From Atractiella rhizophila (lineage: Eukaryota): a DNA stretch of 64,000 bases. Below are positions 15,219-38,052 of the stretch, piece after piece. Numbering within the stretch: the first letter of the stretch is position 1; each line of letters opens with the position of its first letter. The notes under the pieces are model-generated. The model did not search any database and had not been told where the DNA came from. It saw only the letters and a list, made by a program, of their open reading frames with translations. The position numbers and the translations under genes are program-made. Where the stretch lies: NCBI GenBank assembly GCA_021432655.1, contig MU271341.1:1-64000 (forward strand), in the 5' to 3' direction.

Positions 15219-17045
15219 TTACTCCTCCTCTCCTCCGTTCAGGATATCGAACCAAGCAAAATCGAATTCATCCATCAGCTTCTCCGCTGCTTCGTCATCC
15301 CAGCTTCCAAAAAATGTTTTGATGAGGATTCTGCGTTCATCAGGTGTTACTTCATCATCGCCAAGGGTCGGTCGCTTCGGAGCATAGAAAGATTTGACGA
15401 AAGCATCGAATCCTATTAACGAGGTCTCACAATACGAGATGACGATGGAGTGCAAAGACAATGAAGGTGAAGAGAGGCGGGATAGTTGGAAGAAGAAGTT
15501 TGAAGGGAGAAGGAGAGCTTCTTCCGTCCCTCCATCCAAGTGTAACTCAGCAAGCCCATAGAGGGCAGAGAAGTGAAGAAATTTCTCCTGTTGCAATATT
15601 GGTGCGTCCAGGGACGGAGTCAAAAAGATCACGCGCAATATATGCAAGTTCTGCCGCTTGCCATCCAATATGTCTTCGACGAGCGTCCGCAGCGTCGTTG
15701 GAAGAGGCCAACAACGATTGAGCTGAAGATTGTCCAGAAATCGATCTTTGTCGAACAATATCCTCGCCAGTCTTTCGCTGATCAGAGTCCGCACAAGACT
15801 GATATCGCGAAGTCGTAGAACGCTCCAAAAAGGCTCGACTGGAACAACATCTGGCAGAGCAAGGGGGGCACGGTACGATAGTGAATATATGCGCAGCTGA
15901 CGAAGCTGTGATTTCGAGGCTTGCAAAAATCGAAACACGTCGTCATCAGTCCAATTATCATGAGCAAAATCAATGCGCGCAAGGTATCGAAGCTGTGATA
16001 AAGAGCCCAAAAAGTCTTTTCTACTCTGAAGCCTAGCCGGTGCGTATTGCAAGGTGACATCTGCTAGGTTTGGGCAATTCTGAATAAAGAGTGGCATGTC
16101 AAATTGGGACCTCATATCACCAATATCGAAGGTGGCGAGGTCCCAAAGTTTGCCAGCACGAGGAAGCCGTTGGGAAATCCTTTGCATCAATCGAGCTTTG
16201 ACGGGATTGTAAATCAGGTAGGTAAGAGCAATCCTCTTCCAACGACGGCAGACACGACAACATGTGCGAAGTTCCGTCGCCAGGAGCGAGTCATGCAATC
16301 CGAGCTTGGTAACGTAGAGCTCCGCGAAGATTGCATCCAACAGCTCGTCAGGAAGAGACTCAAATGGAAAATAGTTTTTCGGGGGGCGAATGCTGAACTG
16401 AATGATCGAGAATCCTTCATTTCTGTCGATGTGTTCAATACGATGCCATGAATCATCACCCCGGAGCACGTTATACCCCAAAACTGTTATGCCAGGGGTT
16501 TGTGGAACCTGCAGTTGTATTTGATCGTACAGGTCCTTTTTGAGATCATCAAGGGGATACTGAAGGCCATAATGCGAGCCCAGGGATGAGCGAGTGACAC
16601 TGATCGTGATCTCTTTCCCATCTGCAGCGTTACGGGTAAAATCAAGAAGTTGATGACTTGGACTTGGCTGCACGGATTTCGACACGTATATTACGAGGTT
16701 AGTGCGAAAGGTTTGGACGAATTGTGGAGAAAACGAGACGGCAAGCTGACGCGGGTGAAAGTAGTTGCCGGAGGATGAATGAAGAAGATTGCTGGATATG
16801 ACCAGATTGGTAGGAGAACAGAGGTTGCTCTCGACGACTTCAGTCTCCATGGCACTGTAATCTTGGAATGAGTTACTTGTAGGAAAAGAATATCTGAGGA
16901 AGAAACATTGCCGTCTAGCAGCATCAAGCGGTTCCAGGACAGATCGATATATATCCACAAAGTCATCAGGTGCGACAATCACATTATGGACAGCATGTTT
17001 CACCAGCAGTTCCTTCAAGATTAAGCGTGTCTTAAGACTACGCAC
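15219..17045 (-). CDS. F-box/LRR-like protein with a ~220-aa N-terminal extension; start uncertain (upstream exon likely)
   Basis: FPFESLPDELLDAIFAEL...LRTCCRVCRRWKRIAL followed by LxxLxL-type repeats. Confidence 0.7.
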   Translation of the reverse strand: MRSLKTRLILKELLVKHAVHNVIVAPDDFVDIYRSVLEPLDAARRQCFFLRYSFPTSNSFQDYSAMETEVVESNLCSPTNLVISSNLLHSSSGNYFHPRQLAVSFSPQFVQTFRTNLVIYVSKSVQPSPSHQLLDFTRNAADGKEITISVTRSSLGSHYGLQYPLDDLKKDLYDQIQLQVPQTPGITVLGYNVLRGDDSWHRIEHIDRNEGFSIIQFSIRPPKNYFPFESLPDELLDAIFAELYVTKLGLHDSLLATELRTCCRVCRRWKRIALTYLIYNPVKARLMQRISQRLPRAGKLWDLATFDIGDMRSQFDMPLFIQNCPNLADVTLQYAPARLQSRKDFLGSLSQLRYLARIDFAHDNWTDDDVFRFLQASKSQLRQLRIYSLSYRAPLALPDVVPVEPFWSVLRLRDISLVRTLISERLARILFDKDRFLDNLQLNRCWPLPTTLRTLVEDILDGKRQNLHILRVIFLTPSLDAPILQQEKFLHFSALYGLAELHLDGGTEEALLLPSNFFFQLSRLSSPSLSLHSIVISYCETSLIGFDAFVKSFYAPKRPTLGDDEVTPDERRILIKTFFGSWDDEAAEKLMDEFDFAWFDILNGGEEE

Positions 17046-19016
17046 AGGTCTGACAAAAGGGATAGATCTGTAGAAAGGACGTACTTCCTGCTTAAAATTT
17101 CTACTGTCGCAGTGAGAAGCAAGGAAACTTGATATGCAGGGCTGTGATGCAATATCAAGTTAGCTTTCTCAGTAAACGGAGCAAAATTCAAGGAGAATGG
17201 AACGACCTCAAGACGAAATGTCGGGTTACATTGAACTTTCAATAATGAGTCAAAGGTGAACAAACGGATGGGAAGGGACGGCGACAGACAATTCAACGGG
17301 GATACTTTACTGAGACTCTATCGCGTAAACAAATCTAACCATAATTGGCCGATGCCAGCCTGAACGCAGGCTGCTTTCTAGTTGACAGGAAATTGATTCC
17401 ACCCTCAAACAGTTTTGGTTCCTTTGGAGGTAGTCACGTGTTCTTTAAGGAAGGTTTTTCCGCCCGACAAAAACTGCAAAGCACAGCAGGAATTATTAGC
17501 ATGAGCTCCTCCTCACCCCACAAGCTCTCCCCGCAAGGTACGCAGCGCAATCTCCACCAAGACCAAAAATGACGTTTTTTACCGGTCGAAAGAAGCGCAA
17601 AAGGTATCCACATTCGTAAACCAGTCGCCGAATGATGACTACACCTTCGACTCGGAGCGGAACAGCAATATTGTGAGCTACAACATACACTCAGTCCCTT
17701 ACAGCGTGTAGGTATTGATAGGAATAGACAGAGCTATGTGCTAAGAAGAACGGTCAGCTGAGCTGCATCAAGGTTCGTCCTCTGTCGTCCAAATCGAACG
17801 TTGTCGTCAGTCACAGCTGAGGTACCAATTACTGTGCTTTGGGTGATATGGGAACAGGTAGCAGCTCAGAGCACTGCACTCTTCGCCTACATGCAACACC
17901 TGGGTTACTTCTGCCAACTTCCCTTCGACCCGACTGAGACACACATCCGTGCGCACCCCTCACCTTTTCTTTCTCCTCTAGAACGGCGTCACTGATTGGA
18001 GCTGATGGGATGCAGAGTGCAGAAGGATTGAAAAGATCACTGGTATATAACTTCTCGCTGCTCGGATGTATAGGCCTGACGGAGATGCAGGATTGGACCC
18101 CAAGAGAGCTTGAGCCCGTTGGACCACTTGTCGCCATGTCACCTGTAATGAAAGCGCGACCCAAGGCGTTATGGACTATATTACATCGTAGCCCCTTATT
18201 TGTCTTCCTCGCTGCCCATGTTCCCTCCGCTTTGCTGGCTTTCTCTTGCTCTCTTGCTCTGACGGACCCGTAGCAAGAGCGACGTTATCAAGCTCGTTGC
18301 ATGTAAAGCATGGACTCCCAGTCGTGACAATGGGCATGTTTATTGACAAGCCAGCTTGTCCATTTGGACAATCGGTGCGCTGTCTATCTTGTTACGCTGA
18401 TATTGAATCGTCCTGCCTTTGGTCGGTTTTGTCGAAGCATGAAGCAGACAGGTGACGGGTTCGGTTTGGTGGACAGCTGGAGGCTTTCGCCTTCTCGCAC
18501 CCTGCCAGCGTTGTGCTGGAACATGACCAACCGAAACCGAGAACCGACTTTTCTGGCTTCAGTGCATCTGTCGTGATTCTTCCTCGACGGTTGTTCTATA
18601 TGTCAAGACGAAGCCCTGCCATATGCTGCCATGCTGAATCTTGTGCCACTTCCGTGCACAAAGAAAACTTTAATTGGCAAGATCCAAAATGCGCGCTGGG
18701 AATGAAAATCTCATGTCTCCTAGGATCCTTGTTTCCGAAAATATAATAAGCGACAAGGGATTTTCGGATTTTGAACTCTACAATCAAACAAGCGTGTTCT
18801 TCATGCATGCTCCTGGGAAACGGCTCGCTCTGGGACAAGGTGTTGCCTCTTTCACACGTTTGTTTGTCGTTGTTTATATAAATTTACGATGGGCGCTTCT
18901 CGCTCCCCAGTTCATTTGGGGTTGACCTTCTCCCGCTCAGCTTCTAGTTTATAAGGGCACGATCAACATGCCTCGTCGTTGAGTTCCCCTCGTAGACCAG
19001 CTTCGGTATTCGTGCG

Positions 19017-22218: not shown

Positions 22219-25200
22219 ATGATTATCCGCGCAGCCCTATCAGTAGGGCTGCTTCTGCTTTCCTCCTTACCTCCATCGCTCGCTGTCAAACGGGGCGACT
22301 TCAAGACTTGCGACCAGTCCGGTTTCTGCAGACGCAATCGAGGCCTCTCCACGCGTGCATCGGAGCATTCGACCGAATGGAGGAGTCCTTACTTTGTCCA
22401 GACTGTTGATTCGTCAAGTGGGACTTGGAAGGGAGAGGTGAAGAACGCACTGTTTCCGGAAGTTAAGTATGAGCTTGAGATAAGGGTGTTGAGGGATGGA
22501 ACTGTGCGCGTACTCTTGGATGAGAAGGACGGGTTGAAGCAGAGATATAATGAGACCTCCCGCTGGGCTTTGGTCGAGGAACCATTACTCATGTTGGAGG
22601 GAGGCGTGCAGTTTGGTGAGAAGGAGAATGAGAGCAAGATTTGGTTTGGACGGCATAGTATGGTTCGAGTTCAGCACAATCCGTTGAAGGTGGAGTTCTT
22701 CAGAGATGGACAGCCACATGTGGTGCTTAATGAAGGCGGACTCTTCAATATGGAACATTTCAGGGTCAAGAGCCAGAACGCCGCAGAGGAAGTGGAGGAA
22801 AAGGAAGAACAGGAGGAGGGCACGGGAGAAGGTGTAGGAGTGAAGGTCAAAGGGTTCGTGAACCAAAATGAAGAGAAGGAGAAGGTCGTGCTCCAGAAGC
22901 CACAAAAGATCAACGTCCCTGGATCCGTTGATTACCCTCACTTTCTGCCCGAAGATGAGAACGGGATGTGGGAGGAGAGTTTTGGAGGAAAAACGGACTC
23001 TAAGCCTAAAGGTTCGCATCAGTTCTCTCTTCCCACAAGAGTCTTGTTGAATATGCACAGGACCCGAATCTCTGAGTATGGATATCACCTTTCTCGGATA
23101 CGAGCACGTCTATGGTATTCCCGAGCATGCTTCGCCTCTCTCTCTGCGCACCACAAAAGGTGGTGACAACGCATATACGGACCCCTACCGCTTGTTCAAC
23201 CTCGACGTGTTCGAATACGAGGCTGATTCTGAGATGGCGCTCTATGGTGCTGTGCCATTCATGAAAGCTCATCGTCCTTCTTCCACCGTGGGAGTCCTAT
23301 GGTTGAACGGCGCAGAGACATGGGTCGACATTGAGAAGGGAGAGACTGGGAAGGCAGTGAAAGATTCTTGGAAAGCAGGAAAGTTCAAGCATGGCGGACC
23401 GGAGGACAGGACGACGAAGACGCACTGGATGAGCGAGAGCGGAATCCTTGACCTTTTCGTCTTCCTCGGGCCCTCGAATGAAGATATCTTCACCTCCTAT
23501 GCTAGATTGACTGGAACGACAGCCCTTCCTCAGTACTTCGCCATCGGGCATCACCAGTGTCGATGGAACTACTTGTCGCAGGAAGACGTACTTGAAGTCT
23601 CCCGCAAGTTCGATGAGTTTGATATTCCGATGGATGTGATTTGGTTGGATATCGAATATGCAGAAGAGCACAAGTATTTTGTGTGGAACAAACGGTCGTT
23701 CCCTGATCCCGAGAAGATGCAGGAAGGTCTTGCGGAGAGGGGAAGGAAGTTGGTGGCGATCGTTGATCCTCACATCAAGAAGACGAACGATTTGTACGTC
23801 TATACCGAAGCACAGCAGCACGATGTTTTGGTGAAGGATAAGGATGGAAAGGAATTTCAGGGTTGGTGTTGGACTGGTGATAGCGCTTGGGTCGACTACT
23901 TCAACCCCAAGAGCTTTGATTGGTGGGCCAGTCTCTTCAAGTTCGACAAATTCAAGGTCTGTCTCCTCCTTTAACGAGCGGCCGAACGGATTGACTGAAC
24001 TCGAGTGGAACAGGGATCCACAAAGAACCTCTTCATTTGGAATGATATGAACGAGCCCTCCGTCTTCAATGGTCCAGAGATCACCTTCCCTCGGGATGTA
24101 GTACATCATGGCGGTTGGGAGAACAGGTGCGTTTCCTCTCATCATCACCAAATCTTGTCACAAACACTGACGAGAAGAAAGAGACGTGCACAACATAAAT
24201 GGCATGGTCTATCACAACCTGACCTCTCAAGCCTTGATCCAGCGCGAAGATACGCCGAAAAGACCTTTCGTCCTCTCACGCTCTTTCTTCGCCGGTTCGC
24301 AACGATATGGAGCCATTTGGACGGGCGATAATATGGGTTATTGGTCCCATCTTGCGCACGCACCAGCCATGATACTCGCAAACTCGATTGCAGGTATCAA
24401 CTTCATTGGTGGTGAGTCTACTCACTTCCGATTTATATCCTTCCTCTGGTAACATCATCATCAGTCACTGACATATGCTTTGATGGGTGAACAGCCGACG
24501 TCGGTGGTTTCTTTGGTGACCCCTCTCCTGAACTCCTCGTCAGGTGGTATCAGATGGGTGCCTTCCACCCGTTCTTCCGAGCTCACGCACATATCGATAC
24601 CAAGCGCCGGGAGCCATATCTCTTCGACGAGCCGATCAGAAGTCATATCCGGGACGCAGTACGTCTCAGATACTCTCTCCTCCCGACCTGGTACAGCGCC
24701 TTCTTCGAGGCTAACAACCTTGGGTTTCCAATCGCCAGGTGCGCGGTTCCTACTATGTACCTTCGTGGCTCACATTCTGACGATGAATGACAGACCTCAA
24801 TATGTCGTCTTCCCTGATGACAAGGATGGATTTGCTGTTGACGATCAATATTTCATCGGAAGCTCTGGCCTTCTTGTGAAGCCTGTTACACAGGAAGGAG
24901 CGACGGAGACGAGTGTCTACCTAGCTGGAGTTGATGTGCGTTATTTTGTTCAACGCCGGCTCTTTGCTAATGAGGTTTGATATTAGCCATATTACAACTA
25001 CTTTACCAACGACATCTTCTACGGTCCTGGACGCATCGACTTTCCCGCGCCGCTCGATACTGTCCCTCTCTTCCAACGTGGTGGATCCATTCTCTCGAGG
25101 CGAGACACAATCCGCCGTTCCGCTCCTTTGATGTGGAAAGACCCTCTCACCTTGGTCGTGGCGATCGACAGAGACAATTCATCTGCTCGAGGACAGTTCT

Positions 25201-27271
25201 ACATGGATGATGGCGAGTCGTACAACAATGAGCAGGGACAGTTCGTCTGGCGTCACTTCAACTTTGGACCCGACACAGACAACAAATCCAACCTACTCTT
25301 CCACAATACTGACGGAGGTGGAATTCCTGGGACTTCTCGTTCATTACAAAAGGGAGTCGCAGTCTACGATCCAGACTACAACAACGAGTATGCAAAGGCA
25401 ATGAGGGTCGTCACCGTCGACACTATCGAAGTTTTAGGTCTACCGTCAAAACCGAAATGCCTCAAGTTGTCTGGAAGGGACCAACCTGTCCATTTCGAAT
25501 ATCTCGATGGCTTCAGCTCGTACGCTGGTCCGAAAAAGAGCGGAGTTGGAAGAAGGGCAAGCAAGCTCATAATTAAGGACTTAAAGGCTTCGATTTCTGA
25601 GGAATGGCGCATCGAATTTGTGATGTACGGTGAGGCCTGTCAAGTCCCCCCTGCCCTTCCAGATCGCCAGACTGCTCTTCAATCTCCACTCTGCCCTCCC
25701 AATCACTTCCGCTGTGCGAACACAGGTCACATCCCCGCTTGCATACTCACTTCTCGCGTTGATGATGGCCTATGCGACCCTGAGTGTTGCGACGGCTCCG
25801 ACGAGCGAGATGGGAAAGTATCTTGTCCCAACCGATGCCAAGAGGTCGGCGCAGAGCATCGAAAGAAGCTGGAGGAGGAGAACAGGAAGTTTAGAGTGGG
25901 CGGAAAGGTTCGAGGCGATTACATCAAGTTTGGGCAGAAGGAGAAGGAGACCCTTCAAGGCACTATCGATGCGCTTCAGGCTTCGCTCAGCACTTTGGAG
26001 GTGAAGGAAAAGAAGGCGAAGGCAGAATTGGATAGACTGGAGGCAGAGTCAGCATCGGAGTCGAAGCGGAAGATGGAGTCAAAGCTTTACAAGAGGCTGC
26101 AGGAACATCAAACCGCCATTGCGACTCTGCGTCAACAGAAGGCTGATCTCGAGACCGACCTAGCTGAACTCAGTTCCATTCTGAATGATCTCTCGGTATA
26201 TTGTTCTAACCTTTCGTACTCCTTTTGACTGCCATTGACAGCGCGACTTCAACCCCAATTATCAAGATATGGCGGTCCTCGGTGCCACTCGAGCTTTTAC
26301 TGAATGGAAAGAAAGCAGGGCAGCTCAGTCGGGAGAGGAGGGCATCGAAATCGAAGGAGACGAAGACGAGGACAGCAACGATGCGACAAAGTTTTCTGAC
26401 GATGACCTAGATGCGATTGAGAAGGAAGACCTGCTCGAACTTATCGACAGCCTATCCCCCTCCTCTGAAACACCTAAGCCCGCTCCGGGCGAGCCTAGTG
26501 GTCTGATGGCAACGATTGATGGATGGAAGACATCGGTGTTCAACATTTTAGAGCTTGCAGGAGTGATCTCTCAGGATGAATCATCTTCGTCCCCTGATAC
26601 GAGTGAGAGACCCGAGGTTGCAAAGGCGAGAAAGAGACATTCGGACGCTCAGGCAGAACTGGAAAAGGCGAAGAGGGAAATCGAGGATAAGAAGAAGGAG
26701 GTCGAGAAAAACTTCGGGAGGGAGTGGGAGTTCAAGAAGCTTGATGGCACCTGTCTGGAGAAGGATACCGGAGAGTAGGTGTTTCTTGCTTCTCCCATTT
26801 AAGAGCCACGTCCTCATGGATGGTCATAGGTACACGTATGATGTCTGCCTCTTCCAGGAAGCACATCAAAAGTCGAACAAAGGTCACGGCTCCACGTCAC
26901 TTGGGTTCGTCTCCTTCTCCTTGCTTGTACAACCCACTAATCACGCCAAACCATGAATCAGAAAATTCTCGTCCTGGTCTACAGGGGGCGAATCACCATC
27001 CTCAGACGAATACTACATGAAGCAAGTATATTCCAAAGGCGCGCGCTGCTGGAACGGTCCAGAACGCAGCGTCAAGATCGACCTCGTCTGTGGAACCCAA
27101 AATGCGCTGCTTTCGGTCGTCGAACCGAACAAGTGCGAGTATTTATACAAAGGTCCGTCCTCCCTTCTTTTTTTCTGAGACGTCGTTGAGATGATGGCAA
27201 CAGTCTCTACCCCGGCGGTGTGTTGGCCACGGGCTGATGCGGAGGAGACGAGGCAAAAGGAGGAACTTTGA
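22219..27271 (+). CDS. Fused ER glucosidase II alpha (GH31) plus beta (PRKCSH/Gtb1) polypeptide, ~10 introns, ~1,500 aa
   Basis: Signal peptide then [21 protein letters not shown]31 [10 protein letters not shown] and WTGDN; the same exon continues into [38 protein letters not shown]; coiled coil; MRH domain ([27 protein letters not shown]); ends KEEL*. Confidence 0.9.
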
Positions 27272-27553
27272 ACTCATCCACATACCAGTCTGAGAGTTGT
27301 AGATATCTATCATTCATAAGTAAGGACTCATCCATATCGCATTCAATCTCATTCAAACCTCAACGCTTCGAGTCCTTTGCAACCGTTGGCATCTTGGGAT
27401 TGCAAACAAAAAGATTGGAACGGAGGAAGAGCGGCCATGCACGAACAACACGAAGTATTATAGAAACTCGAAATCGTACAAAGACTCATATCTCCAGTCG
27501 ATCAACATTTACTTTTAAGCCCTCCACACAAACCGCTCACGCTCACTGGCAAT

Positions 27554-28756
27554 CTATTCCTTCTTCTTAACCACCACACCTCCCGTACCGGAACAGCTCC
27601 CCGGTCGTTGCGCCAGCTCTTTGAGAGCCCCAAGCATCGCTTCCCGCGCTTTTTCGGAAAGTAATTCGATGTCTTCGTGCGACGACGTGAAACCCTTGGT
27701 CTCTATTGGCTCCAGGACTGATGCACCACAAGACGGGGGATCAGCGACGGGAAGAGAGTAGGAGATAGGAACGGACCTTTGATATGCGCTTCACCAGGTT
27801 CGAAGAGCGAGTTTTTGAGCTGGAACATGTTCCAATACTAGGCAGAAACAAAGTTTCATGAGCACACTGAAATATGTAAGGAGAAAGGAGTACGTTTTCA
27901 CAAACCACCGGTATTATTGGCACTTGCTGTAACCATCCGCGACCTCAGTTCCTCCCACCACTCGACCAAAGAGGAAGAGAGAACGCACCGCCTGGACAGC
28001 CAAATGGAATGCTCCTTTCTTGAAGGGCAGCAAATCAGGACCTTGAGCATTGCTCCTCGTGCCCTCTACAAAGATGACTGGGCAAGTCTGCATTTCATGC
28101 ATCTCCTTCGCCGCCTTCGCAAACGTCTTGATAGCCTTCTCCCGACTCGCACGCTCGACCAAGATAGCCCGACTGGCCCAAAGGTAGGGGCCGAGGATGG
28201 GGAGCCACAGGAGCTCCTTCTTCGCCATGATGGACGTCCCCCTCTGCATGACCTTTCCGAGGATGAGGACGTCGATCATGCTCTGGTGGTTGAGGATGAT
28301 GACGCAGGGCTTGGATTGGGTCAGACGCTCTTCGTTGTGGATGGTCAGCTTCCAGGAGACGAGGGGCGAGGTGATGGCGTAGAAGGTACGGGCGACGTAG
28401 AGGTTGATGTTGCGTCGTTGGCCGAGGATGGGGAGGACGATGGAGAGGAAGACGCCGAAGAAACTGGTGAATGTCAACGTCGACAAGTACGCCGTCACTC
28501 TGAGCCTGGCGACCACAGCACGCAACGAATGAGCTCTGATACCCTCTCATGGTGAAGTTGATGGGGGAACGCACCAATACCGCATCTTTTGTGAAAACCG
28601 GGCCAAAATCATGACAGGGATTGCCCCAAAGATCCCCTTGAGCAACCGAGTTGACAATCCGGCTCCTGAAGCGCTAGTCAGGGGGAGGGACATGAATACG
28701 CTTGCTGCTGAGTACACAAGGAGGGGGGGCAGGAGGAGGACCACCGTGCGAAACAT
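27554..28756 (-). CDS. SLC1: 1-acyl-sn-glycerol-3-phosphate acyltransferase, multi-exon
   Basis: NHQSMID, FVEGTRS, LLPFKKGAFHLAVQA; C-terminal VKKKE* (KKxx-type ER retrieval). Confidence 0.92.
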
Positions 28757-34612: not shown

Positions 34613-37600
34613 ATGGAGAAACGGAAAAGAGAGCCTTCCCGTCTCGCGCGCGAGATCGCTGAAGCTCAAGCTGAGGCCAAAAGAGGAGCGAGGTCAGCTC
34701 AGCCTGAGAAGAAGCGGAAGGTCTCCAGACAGACCTCGAAAACGGCCAAACCGAAGCCGAAATCAAGAACCAAGTCAGCGACGAGACAGGCGGACGAGTC
34801 GAATGGATTGGAGTTTGTTGAGAGCAAGGGAGGCTATGATGCTAATGGAACATGGCTGTATTGTATCTGTCTTGGGGAGGAAGATGCCTCTCGGGCAATG
34901 ATACAGTGTGACAGTTGTTTATTGTGGTGGGCATCTCTTTCGGACTGAACGATGGGGGACTCACGAATTGTACAGGCATCATTTGTCTTGTGTCGGGTTT
35001 ACAGAGGAGGAGGCGAAACAAATTGATGATTGGTACTGTGACAAATGCATCGAATCTGGCGCTAAACCAGTCCCAGAAAGTGAGTTCGTCTCTGTTGTGT
35101 GTGGGAAAGGAGGGAGACAGTTTGAGCTGCCAACTTGCTACCTTGTCACCTGTCTGTACAATCTGAGCCTGTGAGAGCGTGACCTATTGCTATCGCTGCA
35201 TGTGAGGACTGTGAGATTTCGAGTGTCATTCAGTTGTGACGACTGCGCCAGCAACACAACCACGCCATGCAACGTCAGGCGAGTTCACCTCCATCGACTA
35301 CAGGCAATGAGGACTAGATCAGGACGGGCAGCAGACAGGGCAGCAAGTACGGCAGCTTGAACGAGGGTGTGGCAGTCGAAGGAACTGCCACCTCCGTTCT
35401 GTCCCAAACGACATGAATAGCTCTGATGTCGCTTGCGTGGGAACAGGTGACAAACGACAGGGAGAAGATGAGCAATGGATTGAACCCTCTCCCATAAGCA
35501 AGGAGTCGAGCGATTTGTCGGACGTGGATTACGACGAAGGAACCGTGGCTCCTGCTCCAACCGCAAACCAAGACAGAACACCTAGCGCTGCACGGAGAAG
35601 CGCGACATCGACTGGGAGACGAAAGAGAAAGCCCGAAGGATTGGAAGATGATGATGATGACGACGACGACGAGGATTTCGAGGACGGCGATGCAACGGTA
35701 GGGCAGAAGAGGAAGAGGAGCCATTCAGGGCAGCTTGAGAAAGTCCGTTTTTCATCCACTCAGGTCCGAAAAGTCATACTAAACGATATCGTCTATTTGC
35801 AGAAGCGAAAAGCGTCTGAAGATGTTCCCACAAGAAAACCTAGCATTTCTCAAACCGCTGGAGCTGTCGGTCTGGTGGAAGAAACGAATAAAGCCAGGGT
35901 TCACGTTTTAAACGAGCTCAAGAAGCTATTGTTGCCTCTCCTTCCGGACGAATTGAAAGCAGAAGACTTTGCTCGTCATTTAGAGACCCAAATTCTCATT
36001 TCGCTCGGGGAGGTCAGCAAGGGTCTGAAAGCGCCTGGTGGTGCATATAAAAATAGATTTTCGCTCCTCAAGAAGCATCTTGAGACCAACGACGATTTCA
36101 AGTCGCGCATCACATCTGGGGAGTTAGATCCTACGACTCTGGCTAACATGCCTGCTGAAGAGATGGACCCTGCACTGAGAGCTTACAAAGAGAAGTTGTA
36201 TGAGCAGTCTCTCAAAGTTACTGTGAAAGAAGCGCTGGCGCAGCCAAAGGTGAAGAGAACACATAAGGGAGAGGAATTGCTCGAGGACTCTTTCCAAGCT
36301 GGTCCTTCATCTATTCCCACGTCCACCGTCCCGTCGAACGATGTTGAACTGGCTATCGAAGCTCCGCCGTCACCTGGTACTCTTCAAAGTCCTCTACTTG
36401 GAACGGAGGAGGCGCAAGATACTGCTCCTCAACTCTTTCGACGAGGAACATCCTCTTTCGCCAAAGCAGGGGACGAACCTACTCAGCCACAACCACTTCG
36501 TCGAGGGTCCTCTTCTACCATCGCTCCTACGGATGAGGCAGAGCATTCCAAGGCGATGGTTACTGACACCGCTACCTTCATGACGACGATTACCGAAGAT
36601 CCCGAAGAGGTTACGCCTGCAGACGCAGATGAAGATGATCCCATTTTGCTCTCTAGAACATCCACCGCCGATCGTCCCAATTTCGATCTCAGTACCGTAT
36701 GGGACTCCATTAAGACCGGCTCCAAACCCTCCATCCAGGAGGAAGTGCAAAGGAGCAGGAGCCCAAGCACTACTCCAGAGTATGATCCTGAGAAGGCTGG
36801 CGAAAAAGATGAGAAATCTGGAGTGGAGGATTTCGACCCATTCGCCCCTATGGAAGGAGTTCAAGGTTACAACGATAAAGATCTAAACTATATTCTCGGA
36901 CAGGACGAACCGATGTCCACCACACCTCCAAACGAGCCTCCGCCACTTCCTGAACCAGACGTCATGAAACTTGACGACCTACCTATCGCGTACAAAGGGG
37001 ATGTGTCAGTTCCAGACGAAACTGACTATCCCTATCAAGCGATTCAAGTAGGTGGACGATATCTAGGTGACAGCAATGCTGTATGGGAGCAGCTCCTTCC
37101 CCGCACCTTTATATCAGAAGGACGCGTTCCTGTACCCGACGCGATGGACTTTTTCTTCAAATGCCTTGATCCGGCCGGCGCCAAAGAACTCTTCGTTACC
37201 GCTTTTCTTCCCGATCAGCTCGCTGCAAATTATCGACAGCGCACAAAAGATGCTCTTGAGAGCTTAAAACATATCGTCGGTTATTTCCAAGGTCGAAAAC
37301 GGGTAGGAGTGATGCTTACACCCAAAACCGACGCGATAAGAAGGCATACAAAGGAAATCTACCTCGTCCCTTTGCTTCCCCAGGATCCTTTACCGAAATT
37401 CCTCGAAAAGATCGAAGGCGATAACATCCTTTCGACGATCGGAAAACGCAGCGAGCCTTTACTTCTCGGCGTAATTGTCGCTGCGAAAGGCGTCTTCAAA
37501 ACGGTGCCCCGTCCTCCGAAACCCATGCCGACTATTACAGGCACTTCGACATTCGATCCCATCGCGATTTCAGAACTCATCAAGAACACGGACTTGAAGG

Positions 37601-38052
37601 CTCTTGCGGAGGCGCTATCTCAACAAGGTGGACCCAGCCTTGACCAACTGATGGTCAACCCTACCCTTCCTCACCAAGGCGCTCCCTTTCCAACCAACTA
37701 CGCAAGTACGAGCGGTCCTTTCGCCAACCCCACTCCAACCCCCCAAAGCCTCATTCAGAACTTGTTCGCTGCCCCAGCACCACAACAACGTAACGATCTG
37801 GACATTGACATACCGCAACCGAAATCGACATATGGTTCGGAAGGGAAGTGGTCTATGTATCCTAGGGATAATGGATGGCCACGGAACGATGACCGTGACC
37901 GCAGGTCGAGATGGGGAAGAGATGATAGGGAAAGAGACAGAGGACGTGGTGGAGGAAGGGATGGCGGTTGGGGAAGAGGGAGGCGCAGCCCAACTCAAGA
38001 TCGCGATGGCTATCGAGAGAGAGGAGAGCGCGGCAGAAGAGGAAGGCGCTGA
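34613..38052 (+). CDS. BYE1: PHD / TFIIS-M-like / SPOC protein (Bye1/PHF3/DIDO family)
   Basis: PHD YCICLGEE...MIQCDSCLLW|HHLSCVG...WYCDKC; ITSGELDPTTLANMPAEEM, KRTHKGEE; SPOC-like IEGRV-type segment (ISEGRVPV) and KEIYLVPL. Confidence 0.8.

Follow-up and report, generated by a model that had tools for sequence, protein, structure and literature searches.

A glucosidase II gene of Atractiella rhizophila that joins the alpha and beta subunits, and its likely reading as a natural single-chain enzyme

INTRODUCTION

Glucosidase II of the endoplasmic reticulum (ER) is built from a catalytic alpha subunit and a beta subunit that holds alpha in the ER, stabilizes it, and brings the glycan to it through an MRH domain. 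Here we describe a locus of the fungus Atractiella rhizophila, at 22219–27271 on the forward strand of the 64,000-nucleotide stretch that was analyzed (contig MU271341.1 of assembly GCA_021432655.1, positions 1 to 64,000; hereafter the window), in which both subunits are read from one gene, very probably to give a natural single-chain form of the ER enzyme. In yeast, mammals, and a thermophilic fungus, the enzyme is an obligate heterodimer from two genes, according to excerpts of a literature that includes PMC3103398 and PMC4742823, the former of which also assigns to the G2B domain of the beta subunit a role in alpha binding and ER retention.

Compared with these heterodimers (GANAB/PRKCSH; Gls2/Gtb1 of Schizosaccharomyces pombe; Rot2/Gtb1 of Saccharomyces cerevisiae; the Chaetomium thermophilum enzyme, 5dkx and 5jqp), the fused protein keeps the family GH31 core with both aspartates, an LDLa-like module, a charged arm, an MRH domain, and an end of the HDEL type, and it conserves the alpha arginine pair that holds beta, where docking is also predicted. 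Unlike them, it comes from one gene as one polypeptide, lacks a beta signal peptide, retains just the second G2B module, and carries a linker of 24 amino acids (aa) together with three lineage-specific invariant cysteines, C964, C1024, and C1058. The separate beta subunits of other basidiomycetes (e.g., Coprinopsis P0144, Thecaphora P0028, and Tremella P0035) are, for most hits, 36–43% identical to the fused beta part over 79–91% of its length and share its module-2 motif, MRH domain, and K/R-[DE]-EL ends; they differ in beginning with a signal peptide and a first module (CDCxDGSDE), in matching PF12999 over positions 1–175 of 176, and in the cysteine at the IPxC position discussed below. A looser parallel is offered by fungal fatty acid synthase, whose alpha and beta subunits are likewise parts of an obligate complex that are fused or split by lineage; that enzyme is unrelated, excerpts of PMC7300031 concern an engineered fusion, and the likeness is an analogy only.

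A full-text literature search, with subscription journals and supplements outside its coverage, returned no paper on a natural glucosidase II alpha–beta fusion, its matches to "fused" being glutathione S-transferase (GST) tags and fused rings. This agrees with an initial annotation, made from the letters of the window alone, whose author knew of no characterized example. The fused proteins are nevertheless already present in NCBI/UniProt under automatic names, so that the arrangement is new to the searched print but visible in databases, where proteins of about 1500 aa are inconsistently called "GH31 protein," "Glucosidase 2 subunit beta," "glucosidase II," or "hypothetical."

ONE READING FRAME FOR TWO SUBUNITS

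The alpha and beta parts meet inside a single exon, 24987–26195. The enclosing stop-to-stop frame, 24987–26228 on the forward strand, passes without interruption from the last GH31 domains through the linker into a module containing CCDGSDE and on into a long charged stretch. Taken alone, the 403 aa of this exon match the Pfam families PF21365 and DUF5110, both from the C-terminal part of GH31 proteins, as well as the PRKCSH-like family PF12999, the last at 73 bits against a cut-off of 34.9.

The whole gene has 11 exons and 10 introns and specifies 1497 aa, comprising alpha and a truncated beta. Exons 1–6 lie at 22219–23011, 23061–23956, 24014–24126, 24182–24411, 24495–24738, and 24794–24935, and exons 7–11 at 24987–26195, 26242–26774, 26830–26904, 26962–27152, and 27204–27271, with boundaries uncertain by 1–3 nucleotides (nt). 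Chaining the window exons by script gives back exactly, at 1497 aa, the NCBI entry titled [quoted passage not shown] (P0001); over the junction exon, a protein search had matched this entry at 100% identity. Also confirmed are the KEEL end, the start ATG at 22219, and the stop at 27269–27271.

In the full protein, Pfam finds on the alpha side PF13802 (aa 86–354, 168 bits), PF01055 (aa 419–746, 382.7 bits), PF21365 (aa 754–842, 80.8 bits), and DUF5110 (aa 859–916, 22.7 bits, under its cut-off of 27), followed on the beta side by PF12999 (aa 1042–1142), PF13015 (aa 1344–1485), and PF07915 (aa 1378–1441). GH31, PRKCSH-like, and MRH domains are thus all recovered from the spliced protein, as the initial annotation had anticipated. 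Its central statement, that alpha runs into beta within one exon with no stop, intron, or new signal peptide in between, is borne out by the frame, by Pfam, and by the contigs described next, and its linker length, single junction exon, KEEL end, and coordinates are correct throughout. A search of the ESM Atlas with residues 900–1210 gave no usable match.

RNA-DERIVED CONTIGS ACROSS THE JUNCTION

Contigs from four public runs, belonging to four different studies among 22 listed runs, were aligned to 24300–27400. In every run, GT..AG introns are skipped as modeled (seven joints in X21, four each in X2 and X4, and three in X1), and the seven 3′ introns of the gene model are reproduced by intron-less contigs. 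Because the introns are skipped exactly at the modeled sites, the contigs derive from spliced RNA.

Bridging was defined as 31 nt on both sides of 25619/25620, the boundary between the last base of alpha and the first of the linker. Record 5 of X1 joins 25571–26194 to 26241–26646 and hence bridges both the junction and a spliced beta intron, holding 49 nt of the alpha end and more than 1000 nt of the beta side. Record 11 of X21 carries three spliced alpha introns and reaches 25642, 23 nt into the linker, while record 12 of X21, records 7–9 of X2, and record 20 of X4 tile the junction, each covering less than 31 nt on one of the two sides. The initial annotation had singled out 25560–25760 as the place where reads might contradict the fusion; one spliced contig bridges the junction there, and no joint, loose end, or indel is seen in that interval in the contigs of the four runs. 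Over the larger span 24987–26194, the contigs show no joint, frame-breaking indel, or loose end, bar one missing base, at 25997, in a contig whose depth is 2.3. Those of X4 have no cover at 25652–25859.

Separately, the contigs of the four runs diverge from the window by about 1–10%, mostly through transitions and in most contigs by less than 5%; therefore, those samples, one of them a root metatranscriptome, contain other strains or near relatives of the fungus.

DISTRIBUTION AND ORIGIN

The fusion is not private to A. rhizophila but is shared by at least three classes of Pucciniomycotina. Full-length fused orthologs number 33 and fall in the Atractiellomycetes, Microbotryomycetes (Pseudohyphozyma, Meredithblackwellia, Phenoliferia, Rhodosporidiobolus, Sporobolomyces, Microbotryum, and Rhodotorula), and Pucciniomycetes (Puccinia species, Austropuccinia, and Cronartium). 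Fused proteins of 1437–1564 aa with the same Pfam set were recovered in a first protein search (20) and in another (eight more), to which further Rhodotorula members are added. The initial annotation's idea of a covalently tethered, self-retained enzyme is upheld by sequence, domains, RNA-derived contigs, and these 33 orthologs, but not as a peculiarity of "this fungus." As for its proposed survey of Basidiomycota, the three classes are fused and the other Basidiomycota seen keep separate subunits: these are Agaricomycotina, Ustilaginomycotina, and Wallemia, and one glomeromycete does likewise. A protein search with residues 940–1120 scored 260 candidates and gave 13 hits, and is not to be read as a census.

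When 1.84 billion representative sequences were scanned exhaustively with HMMER, 1964 hits came back. Fifteen of the best 150 span the junction, with identity of at least 41% and E values of 7.7e-65 or better, and the remainder of the 150 are alpha-only or beta-only. A distant, independent fusion would score between these groups and none did, so the best 150 contain no such case. Ten junction-spanning representatives that were looked up yielded only Rhodotorula names; five alpha-only and five beta-only ones carry Mycena names or none.

When short proteins were searched with the beta part, 404 hits were obtained. Among the best 120, the named ones, with a top identity of 40–43%, are separate betas of Ustilaginomycotina, Agaricomycotina, and one glomeromycete, and no named stand-alone beta of Pucciniomycotina is found; three unnamed hits are fragments of fused proteins. 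Alpha-only hits come from Clathrus, Wallemia, and Mycena, plus a "partial" model of Puccinia triticina (P0024). In two further proteins, P0188 (1275 aa) and P0239 (754 aa), the beta N-terminal region lies deep within a longer chain (residues 189–361 and 364–492, respectively); they could represent different architectures or, alternatively, merged models. Another odd entry, P0300 of Rhodotorula mucilaginosa (1864 aa), falls into the same 90% cluster as TauD/TfdA dioxygenase models roughly 365 aa long, which suggests that one annotation merged the fused glucosidase II gene with a dioxygenase gene next to it.

For the beta part, a maximum-likelihood tree was built by a quick search from 43 rows picked among named hits. 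By the Shimodaira–Hasegawa-like approximate likelihood ratio test (SH-aLRT), the Ustilaginomycotina group at 100 and the Agaricomycotina at 96, and the 18 fused rows lie on one side of a weakly supported branch. A single origin of the fusion would be compatible with this tree and with the data as a whole, which do not prove it.

THE ALPHA PART

The protein has one likely signal peptide, aa 1–22 (22219–22284), recognized by inspection from its hydrophobic N-terminus. Conservation among 28 fused proteins sets in at aa 22–23, and the mature GII-alpha chain of C. thermophilum aligns from there as well. From there the alpha part covers aa 23–1017 (22285–25619, introns included) and ends at F1017, with its last base at 25619. 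Since the separate alpha subunits of Clathrus, Wallemia, and Mycena terminate where ...EEWRIEF aligns, the alpha part of the fusion is complete. Its nearest solved relatives are GII-alpha chains (5dkx_A at E = 7.4e-280; mouse and human GANAB at about 1e-240 to 1e-222), with other GH31 enzymes matching more weakly (maltase-glucoamylase at 4e-121; lysosomal alpha-glucosidase at about 1e-81).

Two likely catalytic aspartates were located by alignment to 5dkx_A. D650 (WTGDN, codon 24327–24329), presumably in the acid/base role, is kept in all 28 fused proteins, and D574 (WNDMNEP, codon 24044–24046) in 24 of them; they align with C. thermophilum D633 and D556, respectively (chain numbering offset +26), the latter being the catalytic residue of GII-alpha in excerpts of PMC4742823. 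The four models lacking D574 (P0011, P0023, P0317, and P0318) omit or garble the small exon encoding WNDMNEP (columns of P0001 aa 564–577), whose equivalent here is 24014–24126, either because an intron is retained or because an exon is skipped, and the gaps look like annotation errors and not like loss of activity. Overall, we infer a complete, catalytically equipped GH31 alpha subunit, with predicted alpha-1,3-glucosidase activity on Glc2Man9/Glc1Man9.

THE LINKER AND THE BETA PART

The linker, aa 1018–1041 (25620–25691), has no counterpart in the aligned separate alpha or beta subunits. It is proline-rich, and its sequence varies among classes apart from the invariant C1024 (25638–25640) and a conserved LQS motif. 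An internal start for a separate beta was considered and rejected: M1019, the only methionine after the alpha end, is followed by a polar, proline-rich stretch and not by anything resembling a signal peptide, in line with the initial annotation's view that no new signal peptide precedes beta.

A single LDLa-like, cysteine-rich module follows at aa 1042–1090 (25692–25838), its first cysteine at 25692, and corresponds to the second module of the G2B domain of beta. PF12999 is matched only at profile positions 72–171 of 176 (compared with 1–175 for the Coprinopsis subunit), the alignment to human GII-beta begins at residue 68, which is the start of the second LDLa-like module, and the motif D[GE][ST]DE occurs once in 33 of 33 fused proteins and twice in 113 of 120 short hits. 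On these three grounds, the beta part is truncated: it has lost both its signal peptide and LDLa-like module 1 of two. The initial annotation was therefore right that a PRKCSH/Gtb1 cysteine-rich module is present, but missed that it is only the second of two modules, at the head of a shortened beta. The notion that module 1 moved into the alpha part was rejected, each fused protein having exactly one D[GE][ST]DE motif.

Downstream, a charged stretch at aa ~1091–1209 (25839–26195), a putative coiled coil by inspection, aligns with residues ~115–229 of human and mouse GII-beta and shares its exon with the alpha C-terminus. The acidic, low-complexity middle of the beta part, read from the translation, spans aa 1210–1343 (26242–26643); the exon 26239–26775 by itself has no Pfam match. 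The MRH lectin domain, aa 1344–1485 (26644–27232), contains three introns, is matched by PF13015 at 101 bits and PF07915 at 38.6 bits, and aligns with the MRH regions of 7jty_B and 8d43_B; matches of the beta part to solved GII-beta structures reach E values of about 1e-41 to 1e-39. Among 28 fused proteins, Q1400 is invariant, and R1447, E1466, and Y1472 are each present in at least 90%; we take these to be the four sugar-binding residues of the MRH domain. The chain closes with KEEL and the stop codon (27257–27271), a predicted signal of the ER-retrieval type. The last four residues fit [KR][DE]EL in 19 of 20 fused proteins, and separate basidiomycete betas end in KEEL, KDEL, REEL, HDEL, or similar, with VEL in two of 10.

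NEW CYSTEINES AND PREDICTED DOCKING

Three cysteines set the fused proteins apart, each invariant in 28 of 28. C964 (codon 25458–25460) lies in a KPKC sequence of the distal C-terminal domain of alpha; the same alignment column holds Q, E, S, T, V, or R in separate alphas and Cys in none of six. C1024 belongs to the linker. C1058 (codon 25740–25742), at the IPxC position of the module, occurs in all 33 fused proteins and is lacking in 112 of 120 short hits, the other eight being fused fragments and truncated models. The extra cysteine is seen in three of the 120, which are taken to be the three fused fragments, and the segment of P0030 shows it. Between residues 964 and 1090, ten cysteines are invariant in the 28 fused proteins, an even number made up of three new and seven retained ones. 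From this pattern, C1058 may re-pair a cysteine formerly bonded into module 1, and C964 and C1024 may form a new disulfide that staples the linker to the alpha distal domain, as conservation and one predicted contact suggest.

That contact comes from a complex prediction of alpha 100–1017 against residues 1018–1097, made without the alignment of fused proteins. It scored 0.61, compared with 0.00 for the best of three controls; of 78 solved complexes, 51 attain the mark for this score, and of 108 mismatched pairs, two do. The runs share at least 91% of contacts, and the predicted local distance difference test (pLDDT) value of the partner is at least 79. The lowest-error predicted contact is C964–C1024, a pair singled out from conservation before the prediction result. 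In the model, module residues 1060–1071 (TSRVDDGLC) touch alpha at 846–850, 854, 452, and 490–492. Within this patch, R849/R850 align with C. thermophilum R834/R835 (numbering +26), whose replacement by alanine impairs the alpha–beta interaction according to an excerpt of PMC7585303 that cites Satoh et al. (2016, Protein Sci). The model thus supports, without demonstrating, binding of the beta module to alpha.

Losing module 1 is not a trivial matter, because in S. pombe a point mutation in either G2B module (E73A, E114A) abolishes alpha binding and the ER retention of alpha, as reported in excerpts of PMC3103398.

WEIGHING THE EXPLANATIONS

Several other readings of the locus deserve consideration. 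It is barely credible that the fusion is an artifact, either an assembly chimera or a gene model merging two neighbors. Merged models do occur in this family, P0300 being one example, but here the junction lies within one stop-free exon, recurs in 33 proteins annotated independently and also in 15 representative open reading frames (ORFs), some on contigs above 100 kb, and appears again in spliced contigs of four runs from four studies, while the fusion-specific cysteines are invariant. The gene might instead be an extra paralog with a specialized role beside separate alpha and beta genes, for which the P. triticina model P0024 (998 aa), with the alpha part alone, could be cited. That model, however, is labeled "partial" and stops two residues past the alpha end, where its relatives continue; no named stand-alone beta of Pucciniomycotina appears among the best 120 short hits, although it should outrank Ustilaginomycotina proteins that are 40% identical; and the catalytic aspartates, MRH residues, and ER signal are all kept, as expected of a housekeeping enzyme. 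We thus hold a paralog of this kind to be very unlikely.

A subtler proposal is that, once translocated, the fused precursor is cleaved within the linker, so that an alpha/beta pair does the work and the fusion serves only co-expression and co-translocation. Nothing speaks directly for this; the linker is proline-rich and variable among classes outside its cysteine and LQS motif, as an exposed cleavable loop might be, and cleavage would account equally well for the lost beta signal peptide. On the other side, 20 aligned linkers reveal no conserved dibasic or other recognizable processing site, the invariant C964 and C1024, predicted to be in contact, would keep the cut parts covalently joined, and the loss of module 1 is easier to understand with a lasting tether. 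Cleavage is accordingly unlikely in our judgment, if less so than the paralog.

We conclude that these fungi probably use the fused protein as their working glucosidase II in the ER, its activity, localization, and chain integrity being judged from sequence. A number of points weigh against this conclusion or its parts. The single chain of about 165 kDa is a prediction from genes and RNA-derived contigs. Only run X4 is recorded as RNA (metatranscriptomic), the nature of the other three runs being guessed; one contig alone satisfies the 31-nt rule at 25619/25620; and the contigs, good but not final evidence, fall short of proving one transcript molecule. A separate GTB1, or a small gene for the lost module 1, is compatible with the data, the protein searches being word-based and confined to best hits. 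The disulfide pairings rest on conservation and one predicted contact, and the favorable complex score may reflect memory of solved GII heterodimers (5f0e, 5jqp, and 8d43) or the seating of module 2 at the site of module 1, both of which carry VND[DG]xCD. As to origin, the branch that sets the fused rows apart has an SH-aLRT value of only 77, and three classes of Pucciniomycotina are covered; Mixia/Mixiomycetes, Agaricostilbomycetes, Cystobasidiomycetes, and others were seen neither fused nor split.

A POSSIBLE MODE OF ACTION

For the single-chain enzyme, the following picture can be drawn. One signal peptide would take the whole 1497-aa chain into the ER, where the remaining module would pack on the C-terminal domains of alpha at the conserved R849/R850 pair, the C964–C1024 disulfide would staple the linker to the alpha distal domain, and C1058 would partner the cysteine left unpaired by the loss of module 1. 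The MRH domain, carried on a flexible arm, would bind the mannose branch of the N-glycan and present its glucoses to the GH31 site, and KEEL would retrieve the enzyme to the ER. Compared with ordinary glucosidase II, such an enzyme would have an obligatory 1:1 stoichiometry and no assembly step, and would otherwise be alike in function.

The fusion may have arisen once, near the base of Pucciniomycotina, and the peptide bond may then have made part of a non-covalent docking device dispensable. We lean, though only slightly, toward the stronger proposal that a single ancient fusion defines Pucciniomycotina and is the sole glucosidase II there, with the tether and C964–C1024 having replaced the holding role of module 1 and C1058 having re-paired the orphaned cysteine. 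If so, a lineage that includes rust pathogens and anther smuts, along with red yeasts of use in biotechnology (Rhodotorula toruloides), would have welded the two subunits together and discarded half of a docking domain, a natural experiment on which parts of G2B serve only the assembly and ER retention of alpha, and one that separates the needs of assembly from those of catalysis and glycan presentation. The fusion would fix the 1:1 stoichiometry and allow the complete enzyme to be expressed from one ORF, ready for structural and biochemical studies of the way in which the MRH arm feeds the active site, and it would provide a clean molecular marker of the lineage.

NEIGHBORING GENES

Three other genes or open frames were noted around the locus, and no link between them and the glucosidase II fusion was seen in the window. 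An F-box-like domain (PF12937, 31 bits) is found in a 646-aa open frame at 15219–17159 on the reverse strand. Convergent with the fused gene, an acyltransferase-domain gene (PF01553, 104.7 bits) occupies 27914–28546 on the reverse strand, its frame beginning about 640 nt past the stop of the fused gene. Farther downstream, a 913-aa open frame at 35311–38052 on the forward strand combines a TFIIS central domain (PF07500) with a SPOC domain (PF07744) and, by this domain pairing, looks like a transcription factor of the Bye1/PHF3 type.

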